NCBI RefSeq assembly: GCF_030013595.1
Contig: NZ_CP122768.1
DNA: 64,000 nucleotides
Origin: Escherichia coli
GTDB lineage: Bacteria > Pseudomonadota > Gammaproteobacteria > Enterobacterales > Enterobacteriaceae
Direction: 5' to 3' (one strand)
Shown: positions 126 to 43,223 of the stretch, piece by piece
How the letters are laid out: every line of letters starts with the position of its first letter
How positions within the stretch are numbered: position 1 is the stretch's first letter
Position numbers and translations under genes: made by a program
Notes under the pieces: generated by a model
Told to the model about the DNA's origin: nothing
Seen by the model: the letters and a program-made list of their open reading frames with translations, nothing else
Databases searched by the model: none

Positions 126-134
126 AATAAATAT

Positions 135-158
135 CCTCCGGCATAGCCGGAGGTTTTT
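135..158 (+). terminator. Rho-independent terminator-like hairpin just after the envZ stop (may be host or IS200 right-end hairpin)
   Basis: 8-bp stem cctccggc/gccggagg with 3-nt loop followed by TTTTT. Confidence 0.6.
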
Positions 159-234
159 CAAATGCGCCTGTAAGGCTCTGTTACCAGCCGCGCCCTAACA
201 GGCGCATACGATCTGACATTTGCATTCAACTTCG

Positions 235-693
235 TTACTTACGGCCCGTAAACGGGCTGCCCGGATATGGAATCGATAACTGCTCCCCCATTTTATCCTC
301 TTCAAGCTGGTGCTTTATGTAGTCCTGTATCTTCGCCGTGTTCTTACCCACCGTATCGACATAGTACCCTCGGCACCAGAACTCCCTGTTTCTGTATTTG
401 AATTTCAAATCCCCAAACTGCTCGTAAAGCATCAGACTGCTTTTCCCTTTCAGATATCCCATAAAGCCGGATACGCTCATTTTGGGTGGGATTTCCACAA
501 GCATATGGATATGATCTGCGCAGCACTCTGCTTCCAGAATCCGTACGCTTTTCCACTCACACAGCTTTCTCAAAATACTGCCTATCGCCCTACGCTTCTC
601 TCCGTAAAACGCCAGTCTTCGGTATTTCGGCGCAAAAACTATGTGATATTTACAGTTCCAGCGGGTGTGCGCTAAGCTCTTTTCGTCCCCCAT
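235..693 (-). CDS. tnpA: IS200 transposase TnpA (Y1/HUH transposase), 152 aa
   Basis: Translation MGDEKSLAHTRWNCKYHIVFAPKYRR... with HUH motif (HIH in ADHIHMLVEIPP) and C-terminal tyrosines (RGYYVDTVG); ORF track extends 17 codons upstream but the ATG at 691..693 gives the canonical 152-aa protein. Confidence 0.92.
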   Translation of the reverse strand: MGDEKSLAHTRWNCKYHIVFAPKYRRLAFYGEKRRAIGSILRKLCEWKSVRILEAECCADHIHMLVEIPPKMSVSGFMGYLKGKSSLMLYEQFGDLKFKYRNREFWCRGYYVDTVGKNTAKIQDYIKHQLEEDKMGEQLSIPYPGSPFTGRK

Positions 694-839
694 TGGGACC
701 CCCTTTTGATTTCTTGTTTGACACTTGCAGTTGCCAGACCGCAAGGTGTTTTAACAAATCAAAAGGGGTTTTAATAACTGGCTCAAAGCTGAAAGCTTTC
801 CGGAACCCCCAGCCTAGCTGGGGGTTTTCTGTGCACAAT

Positions 840-4701: not shown

Positions 4702-5586
4702 TTAATGAACTTGCGGATCTGCCGGAGACGCGTTGTTGCGGATTTCAGCAATATCCATCGCATTGAACAGATAGTGGTTACCGCAGTAATCGCAATGCAT
4801 GTCAATTTCGCCATCTTCCGCCAGGATGCTATCGACTTCTTCATCCGGCAGCGTTTTTAGCGCGTCGGCGCAACGTTCACGCGAGCAGGTGCATTTGAAC
4901 TCCACATCCTGCGGATCGTAAACCGTCACCTCTTCTTCGTGATACAAACGCCACAACACTTCGTTTGCCGGTAAGGTCAACAGTTCTTCGGTTTTGATGG
5001 TTTCGGTTAGCGTCGCCAGGTGGTCAAAGTCGTCCTGCTGGGCATTTTGCGCAGGCATTACCTGCAACAACATACCGCCTGCAGCCGGTTTGCCGTCTAC
5101 GTCGCCGGTGCGAATAAAAAGGCGCGTCGGCAGCTGTTCAGAACGCATAAAGTAATCTTCCAGGCAGGCCGCCAGAGTATCACCTTCCAGACCCACCACG
5201 CCCTGATAGCGTTCACCTTCGCTCGGGGTGATGGTGATCACCACGTAACCATTGCCGACCAGCGTTTTCAGGTCGGCATTTTCTGGAATTTCTCCCTGCA
5301 CGCGCGCTACACCGCGCATCTGCTGGTTGTTGTTACCGTTAATAACCGCCAGATTCATCGGACCGTCGCCTTGCAGCTGTACGGTGATATCACCATCAAA
5401 CTTCAGCGTAGCGGTTAACAGGCTGGTCGCAACCAGCAGTTCTGCCAGCACGTTTTTAACGGGCTGCGGATAATCGTGATTCTCAAGGATCTGTTGCAGG
5501 GTTTCCGAAACGGTTACCAGTTCGCCGCGCACGGCAAAGTTTTCAAACAGATAGCGATGTAATTGGTCATGTTGCGGCATAATCAT
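4702..5586 (-). CDS. hslO: redox-regulated chaperone Hsp33
   Basis: Translation [24 protein letters not shown]... with C-terminal zinc-binding cysteines CTCSRERC...CDYC; the start could instead be the third codon (5580). Confidence 0.93.
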
Positions 5587-5604
5587 CTCTCTTGCAGGTG
5601 ACAG

Positions 5605-6006
5605 TTATTCACTGTCGCCGTGTTTAAATCGTAACAGGTCGCGGCGCTCTTTTTTGTCCGGGCGTCGGTCCGGGTGCGGCATGGTTAAGGCATTAAGTTT
5701 ACGTGCCAGCGCCATTTTTTCGCGTTTCTCTACACTTTCCGCAGTCTCTTCATACAGCAAGGCTGCCTCGCTGGCGGGGCGACGCTGTTCAGTAATCGCC
5801 TTTACAATCACCGTGCGTTCGTCATTTCCCTGGCGCAGAGTGAGCGTGGCATTCAGCTCGACGATTTTGCTCGGCTTGCTGCGCTGCCCGTTGTAATGCA
5901 CCTTACCGCCTTCAATCATTTCACGGGCCAGCGCGCGGGTTTTATAAAAACGGGCAGCCCATAGCCATTTATCCAGTCGAACCTCAACAGCAGGTTTTTC
6001 TTTCAT
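5605..6006 (-). CDS. hslR: ribosome-associated heat-shock protein Hsp15
   Basis: 133-aa basic protein MKEKPAVEVRLDKWLWAARFYKTRALA... (S4-like RNA-binding domain), immediately upstream of hslO. Confidence 0.92.
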   Translation of the reverse strand: MKEKPAVEVRLDKWLWAARFYKTRALAREMIEGGKVHYNGQRSKPSKIVELNATLTLRQGNDERTVIVKAITEQRRPASEAALLYEETAESVEKREKMALARKLNALTMPHPDRRPDKKERRDLLRFKHGDSE

Positions 6007-9204: not shown

Positions 9205-9765
9205 ATGAGCAAATCATTACAAAAACCCACCATTCTGAATGTTGAAACTGTAGCCCGTTCCCGACTGTTTACCGTCGAAAGCGTGGATCTGGAGTTCAGC
9301 AATGGCGTGCGGCGTGTTTATGAACGAATGCGTCCAACCAACCGGGAAGCAGTGATGATTGTGCCGATTGTGGACGATCACCTGATCCTGATCCGCGAAT
9401 ACGCAGTGGGAACTGAATCCTACGAATTAGGTTTTTCGAAAGGATTAATTGATCCGGGTGAAAGCGTCTTCGAAGCCGCGAACCGCGAGCTAAAAGAAGA
9501 GGTGGGATTTGGTGCGAACGATCTGACTTTTTTGAAGAAGCTCAGCATGGCACCGTCTTACTTTTCCAGCAAAATGAATATCGTGGTAGCGCAAGATCTC
9601 TACCCGGAATCGCTGGAAGGCGATGAGCCAGAGCCGCTACCACAGGTGCGCTGGCCGCTGGCGCATATGATGGATTTGCTGGAAGACCCTGACTTCAACG
9701 AAGCGCGTAATGTCAGCGCGCTGTTCCTCGTGCGCGAATGGTTGAAAGGGCAGGGGCGAGTGTAA
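9205..9765 (+). CDS. nudE: ADP-compounds hydrolase NudE (Nudix)
   Basis: 186 aa with Nudix box GLIDPGESVFEAANRELKEEVG. Confidence 0.92.
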   Translation: MSKSLQKPTILNVETVARSRLFTVESVDLEFSNGVRRVYERMRPTNREAVMIVPIVDDHLILIREYAVGTESYELGFSKGLIDPGESVFEAANRELKEEVGFGANDLTFLKKLSMAPSYFSSKMNIVVAQDLYPESLEGDEPEPLPQVRWPLAHMMDLLEDPDFNEARNVSALFLVREWLKGQGRV

Positions 9766-9786
9766 ATGCGTGAAGTTTGCCTGATG

Positions 9787-9814
9787 CATAATGCTTATCA
9801 GGCCTGTGTGGCTC
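9787..9814. repeat. REP-like palindromic remnant
   Basis: gcctgatgcataatgcttatcaggcctg resembles the E. coli REP core GCCTGATGCG...CTTATCAGGCC. Confidence 0.45.
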
Positions 9815-9905
9815 CTGCAATATATTGATTTTTCAAGATGTTGCTAGACGGGTAAAATGTTCACGCCGTATCCGGTATAAACAAAGTGCACTTTGTCAGC
9901 AAACT

Positions 9906-9931
9906 TAAAAAGGCGCTGAAGCGCCTTTTTA
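9906..9931 (-). terminator. mrcA Rho-independent terminator
   Basis: Hairpin aggcgc-tgaa-gcgcct flanked by A and T runs, immediately 3' of the mrcA stop. Confidence 0.75.
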
Positions 9932-9932
9932 A

Positions 9933-12485
9933 TCAGAACAATTCCTGTGCCTCGCCATTATCGATAATGGTCGTTCCCACCTCGTGCACCGCCTGTTGTG
10001 TCGGCTGCGTACCTTCGATGAAATACTCTTCGCGGCTGTTGCCACCATTAGCTAACTGCCCGGTGCTGCGATCGATATTCACCGTCACAATACCCGGCGG
10101 CGGCGTCAGCGGCTGCTCCGGCACACCTTCAAGAACGGCTTTCATATAAGCGTCCCATGCAGGCTGGGCACTCTTGGCACCGCCTTCGTAACCTGAGATC
10201 TGATCTTTAATCGCTCCGGAAGCCGTTGTATGACCGAGATTACGACGGTGATCATCAAAGCCAATCCAGACCGAGGTCACAACGCCCGGACCGTAACCCG
10301 AAAACCACGCATCTTTCGAACTGTTAGTGGTACCGGTTTTCCCGCCGATATCGCGACGCTGCAAATCACGACCTGCACGCCAGCCGGTACCCTGCCAGCC
10401 TGGCTCACCAAAGATATTGGTGTTCAAAGCACTCTTAATCAGGAATGCCAGCGGAGTGTTGATGACGTGCGGTGCGTACTCCTGCGCGCCAGTCTTCGCC
10501 ACTAACGCCTGATTTGCCTGCTCCAGCTGCGGCATTGGCACAGAAACATTCTGCTGCTCGCGGGAGATAGCGACATCTTCAACATCGTTATTTTCCAGCA
10601 CGTTCGATTTCTGCGTATCACCGTAAATTACCGGAATATCGCATTCCGGGCAGGCTACTTTCGGTTTCGCTTCGAAAATCACGCCGCCCTGATCGTTTTC
10701 AATTTTGCTGATAAACCACGGGTCCACCAGGAAGCCGCCGTTCGCCATGACCGCGTAGCCGCGCGCCACCTGCATTGGGGTGAATGACGCTGAACCCAGC
10801 GCCAGCGATTCGGTGTGGACAATGTTTTGCGCCGGGAAGCCGAAGCGTTGCAGATATTCTGCAGCGTAGTCGACGCCCATCGCCCGCATTGCGCGTACCA
10901 TCACCACGTTTTTCGACTGGCCCAGTCCCTGACGTAAGCGAATTGGACCAGCATATTGTGGCGGCGAGTTTTTCGGCTGCCAGTCAGAACCGGCACCTGC
11001 GTCCCAGCGAGAAATTGGCACATCGTTCAACATACTTGCCAGCGTCAGACCTTTATCCATCGCCGCGGTGTAGAGGAACGGTTTGATGTTGGAACCCACC
11101 TGACGCAGTGCCTGGGTGGCGCGGTTAAACTTGCTCTGATTGAAATCAAAGCCACCGACCAGCGCCATAACGGCACCGTTTTGCGGATTGATCGACACCA
11201 GCGCCGAGTTCACTTCCGGCACTTGTGCCAGCCACCATGCATCGCCAACCTGACGAACCCAGATTTGCTGACCCGTTTGCAGAACATCGGTCACTTTACG
11301 CGGCGTCGGTCCCTGCTGAGTATCCGAACGGTAAGGACGCGCCCAGCGAACGCCTTCCATACTCAATGCGACGGTCGACCCGTCCGCCAGCATCGCCGTC
11401 GCTTCCTGAGGATTGGCGCTGGTGACTGCGGCAGGCAGCAGCGGACCATAGGTCGGCAGCGCCTTCAGCGTATCGGTAATCTTGTTGTTATCCCACGCCG
11501 ATTCGCCCACTTTCCACAGCACATTTGCCGGGCCGCGATAGCCGTGGCGCATGTCGTAGTCCAGCACGTTATTACGTACCGCCTGCTGTGCGGCCTGCTG
11601 CACTTTGCGGGTGATGGTGGTGTAAATGCGATAACCGTCTTCATAGGCACTTTCGCCATAACGGTTATACATCTCCTGGCGCACCATTTCGCTCAGGTAC
11701 GGCGCAGAGAAAGCAATCTCCGGCGCGTGATAGTTAGCGTTAATCGCCTCAGTGCGTGTCTGATCGAACTGTTGTTGGGTGATATACCCTTCATCCAGCA
11801 TCCGCGACAGTACGACGTTACGCCGCGCGACGGCACGATCCATTGAGTAGAGCGGATTAAAGGTGGAAGGCGCTTTCGGCAGCCCGGCTATCACCGCCAT
11901 TTCGTTCAGCGTCAGTTGGTCGACCGTTTTTCCGAAATAGACTTGTGCCGCAGCACCGACACCATAGGCGCGGTAGCCGAGGTAAATCTTGTTCAGATAA
12001 AGCTCGAGGATCTCGTCTTTCGTCAGCAACTGTTCAATGCGAATCGCGAGGAAGACTTCCTTAATCTTACGCATCAGCGTGCGTTCTGGACTGAGGAAGA
12101 AGTTTCTCGCCAGCTGCTGGGTAATGGTACTCGCCCCTTGTGACGCGTGGCCGGAGAACAGCGCCACACTTGCCGCACGGAAGATCCCCACCGGGTCAAC
12201 GCCGTGATGCTCGTAGAAGCGGCTGTCTTCCGTCGCGATAAAGGCTTTCACCATCTCCGGCGGGATTTGATCCAACGTAACCGGAATACGACGTTTCTCA
12301 CCGTATTGAGCAATCAGCTCGCCATCGGCGCTGTAAATCTGCATCGGAATTTGCAGGCGAACATCTTTTAATGTCGCCACATCCGGCAGTTGTGGCTCGA
12401 TGTAGCGGTATAGGCCATAAATCGAGCCTGCTCCCAGCAGAATGCAACAGACTGCAAGGATCAAAAAATACTTTACGAACTTCAC
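9933..12485 (-). CDS. mrcA: penicillin-binding protein 1A (bifunctional transglycosylase/transpeptidase), 850 aa from GTG
   Basis: Translation ...KFVKYFLILAVCCILLGAGSIYGLYRYIEPQLPD... with transpeptidase SxxK-type region; an alternative in-frame ATG lies at 12509. Confidence 0.93.
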   Translation of the reverse strand: MKFVKYFLILAVCCILLGAGSIYGLYRYIEPQLPDVATLKDVRLQIPMQIYSADGELIAQYGEKRRIPVTLDQIPPEMVKAFIATEDSRFYEHHGVDPVGIFRAASVALFSGHASQGASTITQQLARNFFLSPERTLMRKIKEVFLAIRIEQLLTKDEILELYLNKIYLGYRAYGVGAAAQVYFGKTVDQLTLNEMAVIAGLPKAPSTFNPLYSMDRAVARRNVVLSRMLDEGYITQQQFDQTRTEAINANYHAPEIAFSAPYLSEMVRQEMYNRYGESAYEDGYRIYTTITRKVQQAAQQAVRNNVLDYDMRHGYRGPANVLWKVGESAWDNNKITDTLKALPTYGPLLPAAVTSANPQEATAMLADGSTVALSMEGVRWARPYRSDTQQGPTPRKVTDVLQTGQQIWVRQVGDAWWLAQVPEVNSALVSINPQNGAVMALVGGFDFNQSKFNRATQALRQVGSNIKPFLYTAAMDKGLTLASMLNDVPISRWDAGAGSDWQPKNSPPQYAGPIRLRQGLGQSKNVVMVRAMRAMGVDYAAEYLQRFGFPAQNIVHTESLALGSASFTPMQVARGYAVMANGGFLVDPWFISKIENDQGGVIFEAKPKVACPECDIPVIYGDTQKSNVLENNDVEDVAISREQQNVSVPMPQLEQANQALVAKTGAQEYAPHVINTPLAFLIKSALNTNIFGEPGWQGTGWRAGRDLQRRDIGGKTGTTNSSKDAWFSGYGPGVVTSVWIGFDDHRRNLGHTTASGAIKDQISGYEGGAKSAQPAWDAYMKAVLEGVPEQPLTPPPGIVTVNIDRSTGQLANGGNSREEYFIEGTQPTQQAVHEVGTTIIDNGEAQELF

Positions 12486-12604
12486 TGGAAATTTCCCATT
12501 TAGTTTCATTTGGGCAGTTTATAAACAAACGCGCGGTAGTATAAAGGCAAGCCAGACGCATTGATATACCCGTCAGAGTGACGGGTGATAAGGAGATCAT
12601 CACA

Positions 12605-22722: not shown

Positions 22723-22738
22723 TTTAACATTAATGCCA

Positions 22739-22763
22739 AAAACCGGGGAAACCCGGTTTTTTT
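22739..22763 (+). terminator. trpS Rho-independent terminator
   Basis: Hairpin aaccgggg-aaa-cccggtt followed by a T run. Confidence 0.8.
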
Positions 22764-30292: not shown

Positions 30293-30333
30293 TCTTGTGC
30301 ATGATGTTTTCGAAAAGAATGCAGAAATAAATA

Positions 30334-36106: not shown

Positions 36107-36264
36107 TTGCTGATTTGTATAAATTTTCTTAAGTCACGGAATTGTCTGACATTTCATGTTTGTGCAAAAAACAGACAAATTGAACGGGTTTATAGAAATA
36201 GATGCACGTAGCAGGGTAAGAGAGGAAAAGGCCGGACGACGATAGCGCCGCCCGGCATGAGCAA

Positions 36265-39818: not shown

Positions 39819-41054
<1,236 letters not shown>

Positions 41055-41108
41055 ATAAGACGCATCAGGCAAAAGATGTCGGATGCGGCGTGAACGCTGT
41101 ATCCGATG
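41055..41108. repeat. REP/BIME-like palindromic elements between convergent argD and yhfK
   Basis: tcggatgcggcgtgaacgctgtatccga closely matches the REP core GCCGGATGCGGCGTGAACGCCTTATCCGGCC; adjacent inverted partial copy taagacgcatcaggca. Confidence 0.6.
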
Positions 41109-41120
41109 GTTTAGCCTGCA

Positions 41121-43223
41121 TTACGCCTTCGAATCCCGCAACTTGCGACTCAGCCAAATCCCGTGATGCGGTCTCTGACGCCATGCCATCGACGAAATGG
41201 TGTGCATGGTGTTCAGATGACCAATAACCCGCTGTAAATGCTGCTCCAGCGTACCTGCCGCGCCTTCGTGCGGCTGCATCTCCGGCGCATCCATGATATT
41301 GGCATCGCCGGAACTACCCGGTTCGTCATACTCCAGCCGCTGCTGACAACGCTGAATGGCGATTTCACAAGACTGCAAATATTCTTGCGCCAGTTCAGAT
41401 GGCAATGCCCGGTGTTCCCGTGCCAGCGTGGTCATGGCATTGATATGCTCAACAATAAACTGACTGTGCGTTACCCACAGTTTCATATCTGCCAGATAAT
41501 GGCTGTTGAATGCCGGTTCCTGCATCGCCTGATTCAATGAGTTATACAGAGTGTTATGCGCCTGATTCACCCGCATTCGCTGCCAGGCCAGTGGCGTTGG
41601 TTGCGGGTCCTCACTCAGAATCAAGCGAATCGCTTCCTGATAGGCTTCTAAAGCGTCATGGGCGTTCTTACGCAATAACCCGCTCTGCCACTGCGGCCAC
41701 AGCCAGACAGTACCGCCGAAAGCAATTAAACAACCAATAATGGTATCGATAAGACGTGGAAGGATGTACTGCTCACCGTTCAGCCACAACAGTTGCAGGG
41801 TATACACTGCGGTAATGGTAAAACCGACCGTCGCCCAGCCGTAGTTTTTGCGCAATATCAGGTAGCTGGCGAGGGTGGTAATCAGCATCAAGGTCAGGGT
41901 GTAACCTTCGGGAATTTTAAAGTGCAGCGCCACGCCCGCAATGATTAACCCAACCACGGTTCCCACGGAGCGATTCACAATCCTCAGACGGGTTGCGCCA
42001 TAGCCATTTTGCGTCACCAGCAATACCGTCATCAGGATCCAGTACGACTTCGGCAGATGTAGCGCGGTGCCCATCAGGCTGGCAACGCTTAACATCACAC
42101 TGAGTCGTCCGGCATTGCGTAGCGCCGGAGACTTTAGTGACAGATAACTTTTCAGCGCCGGAAGTAACGGCATTCGCCGCTGTTTATCGGCCAGTAAGTC
42201 ACGGGCATAGAGCGGTTTTTGGGTGCGCAGCACGCGGGCAATGCGGCTGAAGTGCCAATAGCAGAATTGCCCAACCGGATTATCCGGATGCTGGCGGGCG
42301 ATTTTTTCCAGTGCGCCAATTTGCTTTTCCATCGTAAAACGCGTCGGCAGGCGATGGTAAAGAATGTCATCAGCCAGCACGCGCAGGCGAGCGGCGACGG
42401 TTTGCGCATTCCAGCGGATAACTTCTTCTGCATGGCTACGCTCGACCAGCTTTTGCACCTCTTCCGGCTGATGCAAACTGACCGAAATATGTTCCTGCAA
42501 ATCCAGTGCCTCCTGGAAAATACGCAGCATCCGCTTGTAATCGGTATTATTTTGCGCGGAAAGCATATGCATTTGCTGATAGCACTGGGTAATTAAATCG
42601 ACCGCTTTTTGCTGGCGCACCAGCAGCGGCGGCAGCGCTTTTTCAGGGTCGGTGTGCTGGGTAAGCAGGCTGTATTTGGCTTCACAATAATCTGCCAGTT
42701 CACGGTACAGCAGACTTAGTGACTCGCGCAGCGGTTGTTCGCGCCAGATCCAGAACCAAAACCAGTTAAACAATCCGTACCAGAGAGTGCCCAACGCATA
42801 GATGAGCAACGGTTCCCAGACCGGCATGTATCCCGCCAGACTGAGGGTAAAAATGGCGGCGAGCAGCGATGCGGGAAGCAATTTTGCGTGCAATGGCCCC
42901 AGCTCAGCAGTGACGCCAAGTACCAGCGTTAATCCGGTCAGCAAAAAGGGCAGGGGAACATCTTTTGCCAGTAGAAGCTGTGTCAGCAAGCTACAGGTGG
43001 CAAACAGCGACGCACCAATGATTAAGCGTTTGAAAAAACGTTTATGAGGCGTATCAAGGCCCGCAATATTGCAACAGGCAGGAACGAGGGAGAAGAGCAG
43101 ACCGAATCGTAATTCGCCAAGCATTAACCCAACGGCCACGGGCAAACATAGCACCAGCGTTTGTCGAAGTGCATAATTGATATCGGGGTGATAAATCAGT
43201 CTGCGCCACATCGGGGGAAACAA
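41121..43223 (-). CDS. yhfK: inner-membrane protein YhfK (putative efflux/transport family)
   Basis: 700-aa ORF with two hydrophobic blocks separated by a soluble domain. Confidence 0.88.
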   Translation of the reverse strand: MFPPMWRRLIYHPDINYALRQTLVLCLPVAVGLMLGELRFGLLFSLVPACCNIAGLDTPHKRFFKRLIIGASLFATCSLLTQLLLAKDVPLPFLLTGLTLVLGVTAELGPLHAKLLPASLLAAIFTLSLAGYMPVWEPLLIYALGTLWYGLFNWFWFWIWREQPLRESLSLLYRELADYCEAKYSLLTQHTDPEKALPPLLVRQQKAVDLITQCYQQMHMLSAQNNTDYKRMLRIFQEALDLQEHISVSLHQPEEVQKLVERSHAEEVIRWNAQTVAARLRVLADDILYHRLPTRFTMEKQIGALEKIARQHPDNPVGQFCYWHFSRIARVLRTQKPLYARDLLADKQRRMPLLPALKSYLSLKSPALRNAGRLSVMLSVASLMGTALHLPKSYWILMTVLLVTQNGYGATRLRIVNRSVGTVVGLIIAGVALHFKIPEGYTLTLMLITTLASYLILRKNYGWATVGFTITAVYTLQLLWLNGEQYILPRLIDTIIGCLIAFGGTVWLWPQWQSGLLRKNAHDALEAYQEAIRLILSEDPQPTPLAWQRMRVNQAHNTLYNSLNQAMQEPAFNSHYLADMKLWVTHSQFIVEHINAMTTLAREHRALPSELAQEYLQSCEIAIQRCQQRLEYDEPGSSGDANIMDAPEMQPHEGAAGTLEQHLQRVIGHLNTMHTISSMAWRQRPHHGIWLSRKLRDSKA

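Follow-up and report, generated by a model that had tools for sequence, protein, structure and literature searches.

REP/BIME sequences are the most abundant non-coding repeats in Escherichia coli. The E. coli REPs, designated y (35 nt), z1 (29 nt) and z2 (37 nt), are imperfect palindromes with GTAG in front and an AA/GC bulge; the REP transposase tolerates no substitution in GTAG, and its activity is abolished when a regular stem is restored (PMC8266576). A consensus, GCCGGATGCGGCGTGAACGCCTTATCCGGCCTACGA, was derived from 356 EcoCyc REP elements and is common to 224 of them (PMC12306157). In BIME-1 (RIP/RIB), a z1 and a y unit stand head to head around an IHF-binding L linker. The y and z2 units are constituents of BIME-2 (Nunvar 2010, PMC2817692), and the BIME-2/REPIN class supplies the substrates of the E. 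coli REP transposase (RAYT, yafM). A role in RNA has also been described: the abstract of a 2026 preprint presents REP as a dual element that partially terminates transcription in a Rho-dependent manner and also stabilises mRNA, and reports higher expression of convergent gene pairs with REPs. Translation can drop where fewer than 16 nt separate a REP from a stop codon (Liang 2015, as cited in PMC12306157).

We analysed three REP-like hairpins in a 64,000-nt stretch of an E. coli chromosome (hereafter the window), located between argD and yhfK (site 1), nudE and mrcA (site 2), and yhfA and prkB (site 3). The three sites are very probably old, immobilised REP/BIME copies, orthologous to K-12 REP247, REP251 and REP246, respectively. 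This assignment has little meaning beyond annotation. Its modest gain is a view of the stepwise, in-place decay of a REP doublet, which would have lost one head, then the other head, then the centre of one unit, and kept one hairpin.

Genomic context and K-12 orthologues

An 801-bp stretch around site 1 was matched in 5,425 of 5,426 complete E. coli genomes, with 100% identity to strain HCP5S3_I2 and about 96.6% identity to K-12-type strains. Relative to K-12 the window is reversed, and corresponds to roughly 3,534.6-3,471 kb. ORFs and the RefSeq annotation place the following genes around the three sites:

nudE, 9205-9765, plus strand
mrcA, 9933-12509, minus strand, convergent with nudE
argD, 39834-41054, plus strand
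yhfK, end at 41121, minus strand, convergent with argD
yhfA, 44196-44600, plus strand
prkB, 44655-45524, minus strand, convergent with yhfA

An earlier note on this DNA, made from the sequence alone, had named the genes and their convergent orientation correctly for all three pairs. No repeat features are present at the three sites in the K-12 RefSeq annotation, which is uninformative because a known REP at 5565-5669 is also absent from it. Rfam at the gathering threshold gave no match at any of the three sites.

Labels for K-12 REPs were taken from the supplement of the 2026 preprint, where yhfA-prkB is listed as REP246, tsgA-nirB as REP248, frlR-yhfS as REP249 and nudE-mrcA (3525479-3525576) as REP251. 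A scan of the K-12 region between REP246 and REP248 gave one strong intergenic match to y, z1 or z2, at argD-yhfK, with a score of 24, and chance matches in coding sequence scored 13-15 in the same scan. Because this is the sole strong intergenic match between the two labelled elements, REP247 would, by elimination, be the argD-yhfK element. A literature search found no direct listing of REP247, and the RepRanger supplements contain no gene lists.

The window sites and K-12 REP247, REP251 and REP246 occupy orthologous positions between the same gene pairs and are near-identical in sequence (site 1, 96% identity over 91 columns; site 2, 93%; site 3, hairpin identical). All three sites are thus already catalogued in K-12. 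The description of them in the earlier note as REP/BIME-type elements that are ordinary for E. coli agrees with this catalogue, with the high copy number of the site 1 y hairpin and with the collinearity of site 2 with K-12 BIMEs.

The argD-yhfK element

Site 1 (41055-41108) contains, up to the yhfK stop codon, the following features:

41055-41071, plus strand (GTAG orientation), z2-type REP remnant, reading ATAAGACGCATCAGGCA
41072-41077, linker AAAGAT, joining the z2 remnant to the y unit
41078-41107, minus strand (GTAG orientation), y-type REP hairpin GTCGGATGCGGCGTGAACGCTGTATCCGAT, from consensus match, fold and copy number
41108-41120, right flank to the yhfK stop, extending the hairpin in the predicted fold

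The arrangement identifies site 1, on its alignments, as what is left of a z2-y REP doublet in inverted orientation. Its y hairpin agrees with the 30-nt consensus palindrome at 25/30 positions and with the K-12 y unit at 26/35; among 200 dinucleotide shuffles of the whole window, which served as the null, one attained 25/30. The central 24 nt of the y consensus have a single match in the window, with 2 mismatches, versus 0.00 expected from shuffles. A 37-nt query over the hairpin found at least 40 places per genome in 5,424 records, so that its high copy number is a direct observation. The earlier note had placed its best REP copy at 41077..41108, which is essentially right. Its statement that this copy closely matches the REP core holds for the palindrome but not for the ends: the head on the minus strand is AACC instead of GTAG, and the 6-nt CCTACGA tail of the consensus is matched at 1/6 positions. 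The full 34-nt y consensus with at most 3 mismatches had no match in the window because the tail is missing at site 1, and shorter core patterns were required. A short 5'-arm pattern was too noisy (18 matches versus 8.6 expected) and was dropped.

Only ATAAGACGC and CATCAGGCA are left of the z2 unit, and both segments match the K-12 z2 unit. Alignment with fuller alleles shows that z2 has lost 11-12 nt of its centre, together with its GTAG head and the lower stem on the 5' side. The linker is kept in E. coli alleles as AAAGAT or AAAGGT.

As RNA, the y hairpin folds with -21.6 kcal/mol (z = -5.9) on the plus strand and -11.3 kcal/mol (z = -3.6) on the minus strand. Compared with K-12, the window has 3 substitutions in the 3' arm of the y unit that close part of the bulge: K-12 keeps AA/GC, whereas the window allele has AC/GC, with one bulge position now pairable and 13 continuous pairs in the plus-strand RNA. 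Further pairing is predicted between GCCTG (41114-41118) in the right flank and CAGGC (41066-41070) in the z2 remnant, and between TTT (41110-41112) and AAA (41072-41074). The plus-strand fold of 41055-41120 has -30.4 kcal/mol (z = -5.5), of which the outer helix is a prediction only.

Alleles and decay of the doublet

Most of 60 sampled genomes have the same 201-bp span at site 1, and 189 genomes with longer alleles lie in the 80-90% identity band. The longer E. coli alleles were aligned with outgroups obtained through ArgD-linked loci. The resulting series contains deletions of increasing extent. A divergent lineage labelled E. coli, SCPM-O-B-8794, has a complete inverted doublet in a 108-bp argD-yhfK intergenic region, consisting of z2 (GTAGGCCTGATAAGACGC...GCATCGCATCAGGCA), AAAGGT and y (GTCGGATGCGGCGTGAACGCCTTATCCGACCTAC), with intact GTAG/CCTAC heads. 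E. albertii has the same doublet, but its heads are degenerate (z2, CCAG for GTAG; y, TCTAC), and the z2 centre differs from that of SCPM-O-B-8794. In strain AST85, 16 nt that include the z2 head are gone, and the y head (CCTAC) is intact. In strains 2015C-4136CT1 and SCU-124, the 16 nt at the left are lost, the y head is lost as well, and the right flank is swapped for a shorter sequence; the right flank of the fuller alleles is different, 15 nt longer, and carries CCTAC. In K-12, the window and most genomes, the z2 centre is shorter by another 11-12 nt, and the intergenic region is down to 66 bp. Alleles of 66, 77, 92 and 108 bp are thus known for this region.

The ancestral site 1 allele resembles BIME-2/REPIN: its z2 and y units are inverted and joined tail to tail by a 6-nt linker, with the GTAG heads on the outer sides. 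Complete z2 and y units with a short linker are present in SCPM-O-B-8794 and, except for the degenerate heads, in E. albertii. Unlike BIME-2, site 1 of the window keeps the y hairpin and 17 nt of z2 with no heads, and unlike BIME-2 arrays it is a single doublet with no tandem array.

In Enterobacter, Kosakonia, Kluyvera, Lelliottia and others, only 0-30 nt separate argD and yhfK, with no REP, which argues that the doublet is a later insertion. We infer that it arrived in the Escherichia lineage and has eroded since. A z2-y doublet would have entered the argD-yhfK junction, between the two 3' ends, in an ancestor common to E. coli and E. albertii; successive deletions would then have stripped it of both GTAG heads and of the z2 centre, with one y hairpin left intact. 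The argD-yhfK gaps of Citrobacter contain GTAG-headed REP pairs of their own, arranged head to head and not tail to tail. Together with the genera that have almost no gap, these pairs suggest that the argD-yhfK gap draws REPs independently and repeatedly.

Across the E. coli alleles of site 1 (window 41090-41120), the 5' arm of the hairpin does not vary, while three haplotypes (CGCTGT, TGCCTT and CACCTC) occur within 6 nt of its 3' arm. Two of the 3'-arm changes (T to G and T to C) convert bulge bases into perfect pairs, and the replaced right flank supplies the predicted outer helix. These arm changes look like palindrome-templated mutation.

A separate observation concerns strain JCH8249, where a 1-bp deletion just before the argD stop (equivalent to window 41049-41058) shifts the frame. 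As annotated, argD of this strain ends three bases later at a TAA within the z2 remnant (...G G K stop), so that the REP remnant provides the stop codon.

The nudE-mrcA element

The nudE-mrcA intergenic region contains the following features:

9778-9807, minus strand, z1-type REP unit, 24/30 to K-12 z1, head ACAG and not GTAG
9808-9842, L-type linker, with an IHF consensus and 14 nt in common with the K-12 REP1 linker
9843-9877, plus strand, degenerate y-type REP unit, 25/35 to K-12 y, attained in 1/200 shuffles
9905-9932, non-REP hairpin (A-tract/GC-stem/T-tract) from the fold, abutting the mrcA stop codon

By alignment, site 2 is a 100-bp BIME-1-type element, z1-L-y, at 9778-9877. It aligns end to end with K-12 REP1 (z2-L-y) and with the canonical K-12 trpS-yhfZ BIME (z1-L-y). 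The earlier note had reported a REP-like hairpin at 9787..9814. The hairpin is real, but lies about 8 nt to the left of these coordinates, at 9779-9804, and is merely the left end of the 100-bp element. It folds with -11.5 kcal/mol (z = -3.2) and keeps an unpaired TT; the 24/30 identity of the z1 unit was attained in 0/200 shuffles.

The linker shares an exact 14-nt sequence, CTGCAATATATTGA, with that of K-12 REP1. It also contains a perfect match to the IHF consensus (AATCAATATATTG, 9818-9830, minus strand), which is one of 6 matches to the pattern WATCAANNNNTTR in the 64 kb; the K-12 allele has one mismatch. Thus site 2 has the z1 unit, the L-type linker, the IHF site as a consensus match, and the inverted y unit of BIME-1, the two inverted units lying around a linker that is homologous by alignment. 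Unlike BIME-1, both heads are degenerate (ACAG on z1, CTAG on y), and the y hairpin is largely lost because its 5' arm is mutated in this strain (ACGGGTAAAATG versus CCGGATAACGCG in K-12, so that the arm is destroyed relative to K-12).

Independent support for the BIME identity comes from strain 09A19CPO009, in which IS1397 lies within the y loop of the orthologous site with TCAC on both sides. IS1397 integrates specifically into the palindromic units within BIMEs, according to the title of Clement 1999 (in PMC2817692).

Site 2 evolves fast: 4,894 genomes are only 90-95% identical over 301 bp.

The adjacent hairpin at 9905-9932 looks like a bidirectional terminator. In K-12, the preprint supplement counts the orthologue (3525422-3525450) among overlapping bidirectional terminators.

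The yhfA-prkB mini-hairpin

Site 3 consists of one feature:

44621-44642, minus strand, mini-hairpin GCCGGATAGTATTTTATCCGGC, the outer stem of a y-type REP without the upper stem, with TTAC for GTAG

The coordinates given earlier for this hairpin, 44621..44642, are exact, and it has a 9-bp stem; the fold of 44601-44654 has -19.5 kcal/mol (z = -5.4). Its arms, GCCGGAT... and ...ATCCGGC, correspond to the outer stem of y and enclose a short loop, with no bulge. The search against a REP consensus that had been proposed as a check gave a match at site 1 (25/30), and site 2 matched the K-12 z1 unit (24/30), but site 3 fell below the threshold of the y, z1 and z2 scan (score <14). The hairpin has no sequence difference from K-12, and identity over 201 bp is at least 99% in 3,917 genomes; site 3 evolves slowly.

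Descent of site 3 from a REP is plausible on its sequence. The arms are exactly those of the y outer stem, and on the minus strand TTACGCCGGATAA and GTAGGCCGGATAA agree, by eye, at 11/13 positions; the K-12 hairpin is labelled REP246 in the preprint supplement. Another explanation is that one or more of the hairpins, and site 3 especially, evolved independently as bidirectional terminators and resemble a REP stem by convergence on a GC-rich palindrome. The low consensus score of site 3 is in line with this, as is its conservation when set against the 90-95% identity of site 2, and the very high conservation would also fit a selected terminator unrelated to REPs. Moreover, the supplement maps K-12 3485366-3485398, which corresponds to site 3, as an overlapping bidirectional terminator in both log and stationary phase. 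However, neither side of site 3 has a U-tract, and for sites 1 and 2 the descent from full REPs is seen directly in the alignments. We consider independent origin unlikely, and a live alternative for site 3 alone.

In strain CUVET19-1426, an IS1A element lies in the yhfA-prkB gap, about 11 nt upstream of where site 3 forms its hairpin (equivalent to window ~44610). The insertion is probably unrelated to the hairpin, as IS1 is not REP-specific.

Loss of the GTAG heads and mobility

Returning to descent from REPs, the alignments indicate that the window copies are family members by descent, at site 3 only plausibly so, and not complete units. All three are extragenic and form stable stem-loops, with fold z-scores of -3.2 to -5.9. 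Similarity to REPs is found at sites 1 and 2, and at site 3 is confined to the outer stem. The conserved GTAG head is absent from all three sites, being AACC in the site 1 y unit, deleted with the z2 head of site 1, ACAG and CTAG in the z1 and y units of site 2, and TTAC at site 3. With GTAG lost, the REP transposase is predicted not to cut or move the sites, which should therefore be immobile, given the reported intolerance of GTAG substitutions (PMC8266576). No RAYT gene is present in the window, where the sole Y1 transposase is that of an IS200 copy.

The opposite view, that the elements are still mobilisable REP/REPIN units for RAYT/TnpA-REP and hence current hot spots of copy-number change, could draw on the high copy number of the family, on other REP sites in the window that do differ between strains, and on the REPIN-like inverted doublet of the ancestral site 1 allele. 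We rejected it because GTAG is lost at every site, and regard it as highly improbable. In addition, the bulge required for recognition is partly closed in the window allele of site 1. Each site also has a single copy that is fixed in about 5,425 of 5,426 genomes and varies only by deletions and IS insertions. Weaker still is the idea that the matches are chance GC-rich palindromes unrelated to REPs, for which a shuffle that attained 25/30 and a 22/30 match inside a coding sequence can be cited; it has next to no probability and was rejected in view of the core match with 0.00 expected occurrences, the 40 or more related places per genome, the precise location of all three sites within convergent intergenic regions, the fuller site 1 alleles with complete canonical units, and the alignment of site 2 with K-12 BIMEs over 100 nt.

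The coding-sequence match lies at 10093-10122 inside mrcA, with 22/30 identity to the y consensus palindrome. It is almost certainly due to chance, and serves as a warning that identity near this level does not by itself identify a REP.

Strain variation in the window

The earlier note had proposed the three sites as potential places of strain-to-strain structural variation. This applies only to small deletion alleles at site 1 and to rare IS insertions (IS1397 at site 2; IS1A 11 nt upstream of site 3). It does not extend to copy number, for which no variation was found at the three sites among the 5,426 complete genomes; the sites show species-wide fixation. The flagged sites are the stable ones, and the strain-variable REP sites of the window lie elsewhere.

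At trpS-yhfZ (window 22724-22740), the canonical BIME of K-12 (y, linker and z1; ~145 bp extra), which is probably REP250, is absent. In 24 evenly spaced E. coli genomes, about a third are without the BIME, and most others are longer by 110 or 130 bp. The earlier note had not listed this site, which is truly polymorphic for the presence or absence of a REP. At yhfS-yhfL (window 30294-30322), ~5.2 kb of K-12 sequence is missing, with ~29 bp in its place. The K-12 segment contains frlABCDR, a GC-rich palindromic repeat and, just downstream of frlR, REP249, which is close to one boundary of the missing segment. Neither REP249 nor REP250 of K-12 has a counterpart in the window.

At the 3' end of tsgA (36231-36256, minus strand), the hairpin TGCCGGGCGGCGCTATCGTCGTCCGGCC is REP-like but degenerate, and TTTT comes after it. 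Its K-12 orthologue is REP248, with 2 substitutions within the element. The window hairpin had been missed in the earlier note, and fell below the threshold of the consensus scan.

Between envZ and pck (window 132-836), an insertion of ~705 bp that is absent from K-12 encodes a 152-aa IS200-type Y1 transposase (Pfam Y1_Tnp, E = 8e-37). An Rfam match to the sRNA family STnc490 lies within it (703-826, minus strand). The insertion is a copy of IS200 and not a REP transposase, though the enzymes are related.

RNA structure and possible role

Structurally, the shared 3' UTRs are dominated by the REP hairpins. A consensus terminator scan of the three intergenic regions found no canonical hairpin with a U-tract, which is a weak negative, as the scan also missed the obvious mrcA hairpin. 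The best tail at the three sites, CAUCUUUUG, comes after the minus-strand hairpin of site 1. Overlapping bidirectional terminators and REP325-type dual 3' UTR regulators likewise have one stable hairpin common to two convergent transcripts; unlike terminators with a U-tract, sites 1 and 3 have no U-tracts. REP251 overlaps a Rho-binding site in the tables of the 2026 preprint, and the argD-yhfK hairpin does not appear in the portions of the K-12 bidirectional-terminator and Rho-binding tables that were covered.

The literature, together with position and structure, suggests that the likely present role of the three sites is as RNA hairpins in 3' UTRs. The hairpins would block 3' exonucleases and attenuate read-through between the convergent genes by partial termination. 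Stop codon and hairpin are 14 nt apart for yhfK, 13 nt for nudE and 12 nt for prkB (23 nt for argD and 20 nt for yhfA), and hairpins 12-14 nt past the stop codon could possibly also damp translation of yhfK, nudE and prkB slightly.

Every site 1 allele is predicted to fold into a stable hairpin on both strands (-11 to -22 kcal/mol). Because the hairpin is foldable in every sampled allele of E. coli and E. albertii despite three surrounding deletions, it may have been kept by selection, as a domesticated 3' UTR element common to argD and yhfK. We offer this tentatively and think it rather doubtful; the predicted outer helix added by the replaced right flank was counted toward it. If true, the site 1 hairpin, 14 nt past the yhfK stop, could both damp the translation of YhfK and protect or terminate the argD transcript. 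Should translation or the 3' ends of argD, yhfK, nudE and prkB be tuned by the hairpins, the natural alleles would provide ready test variants.
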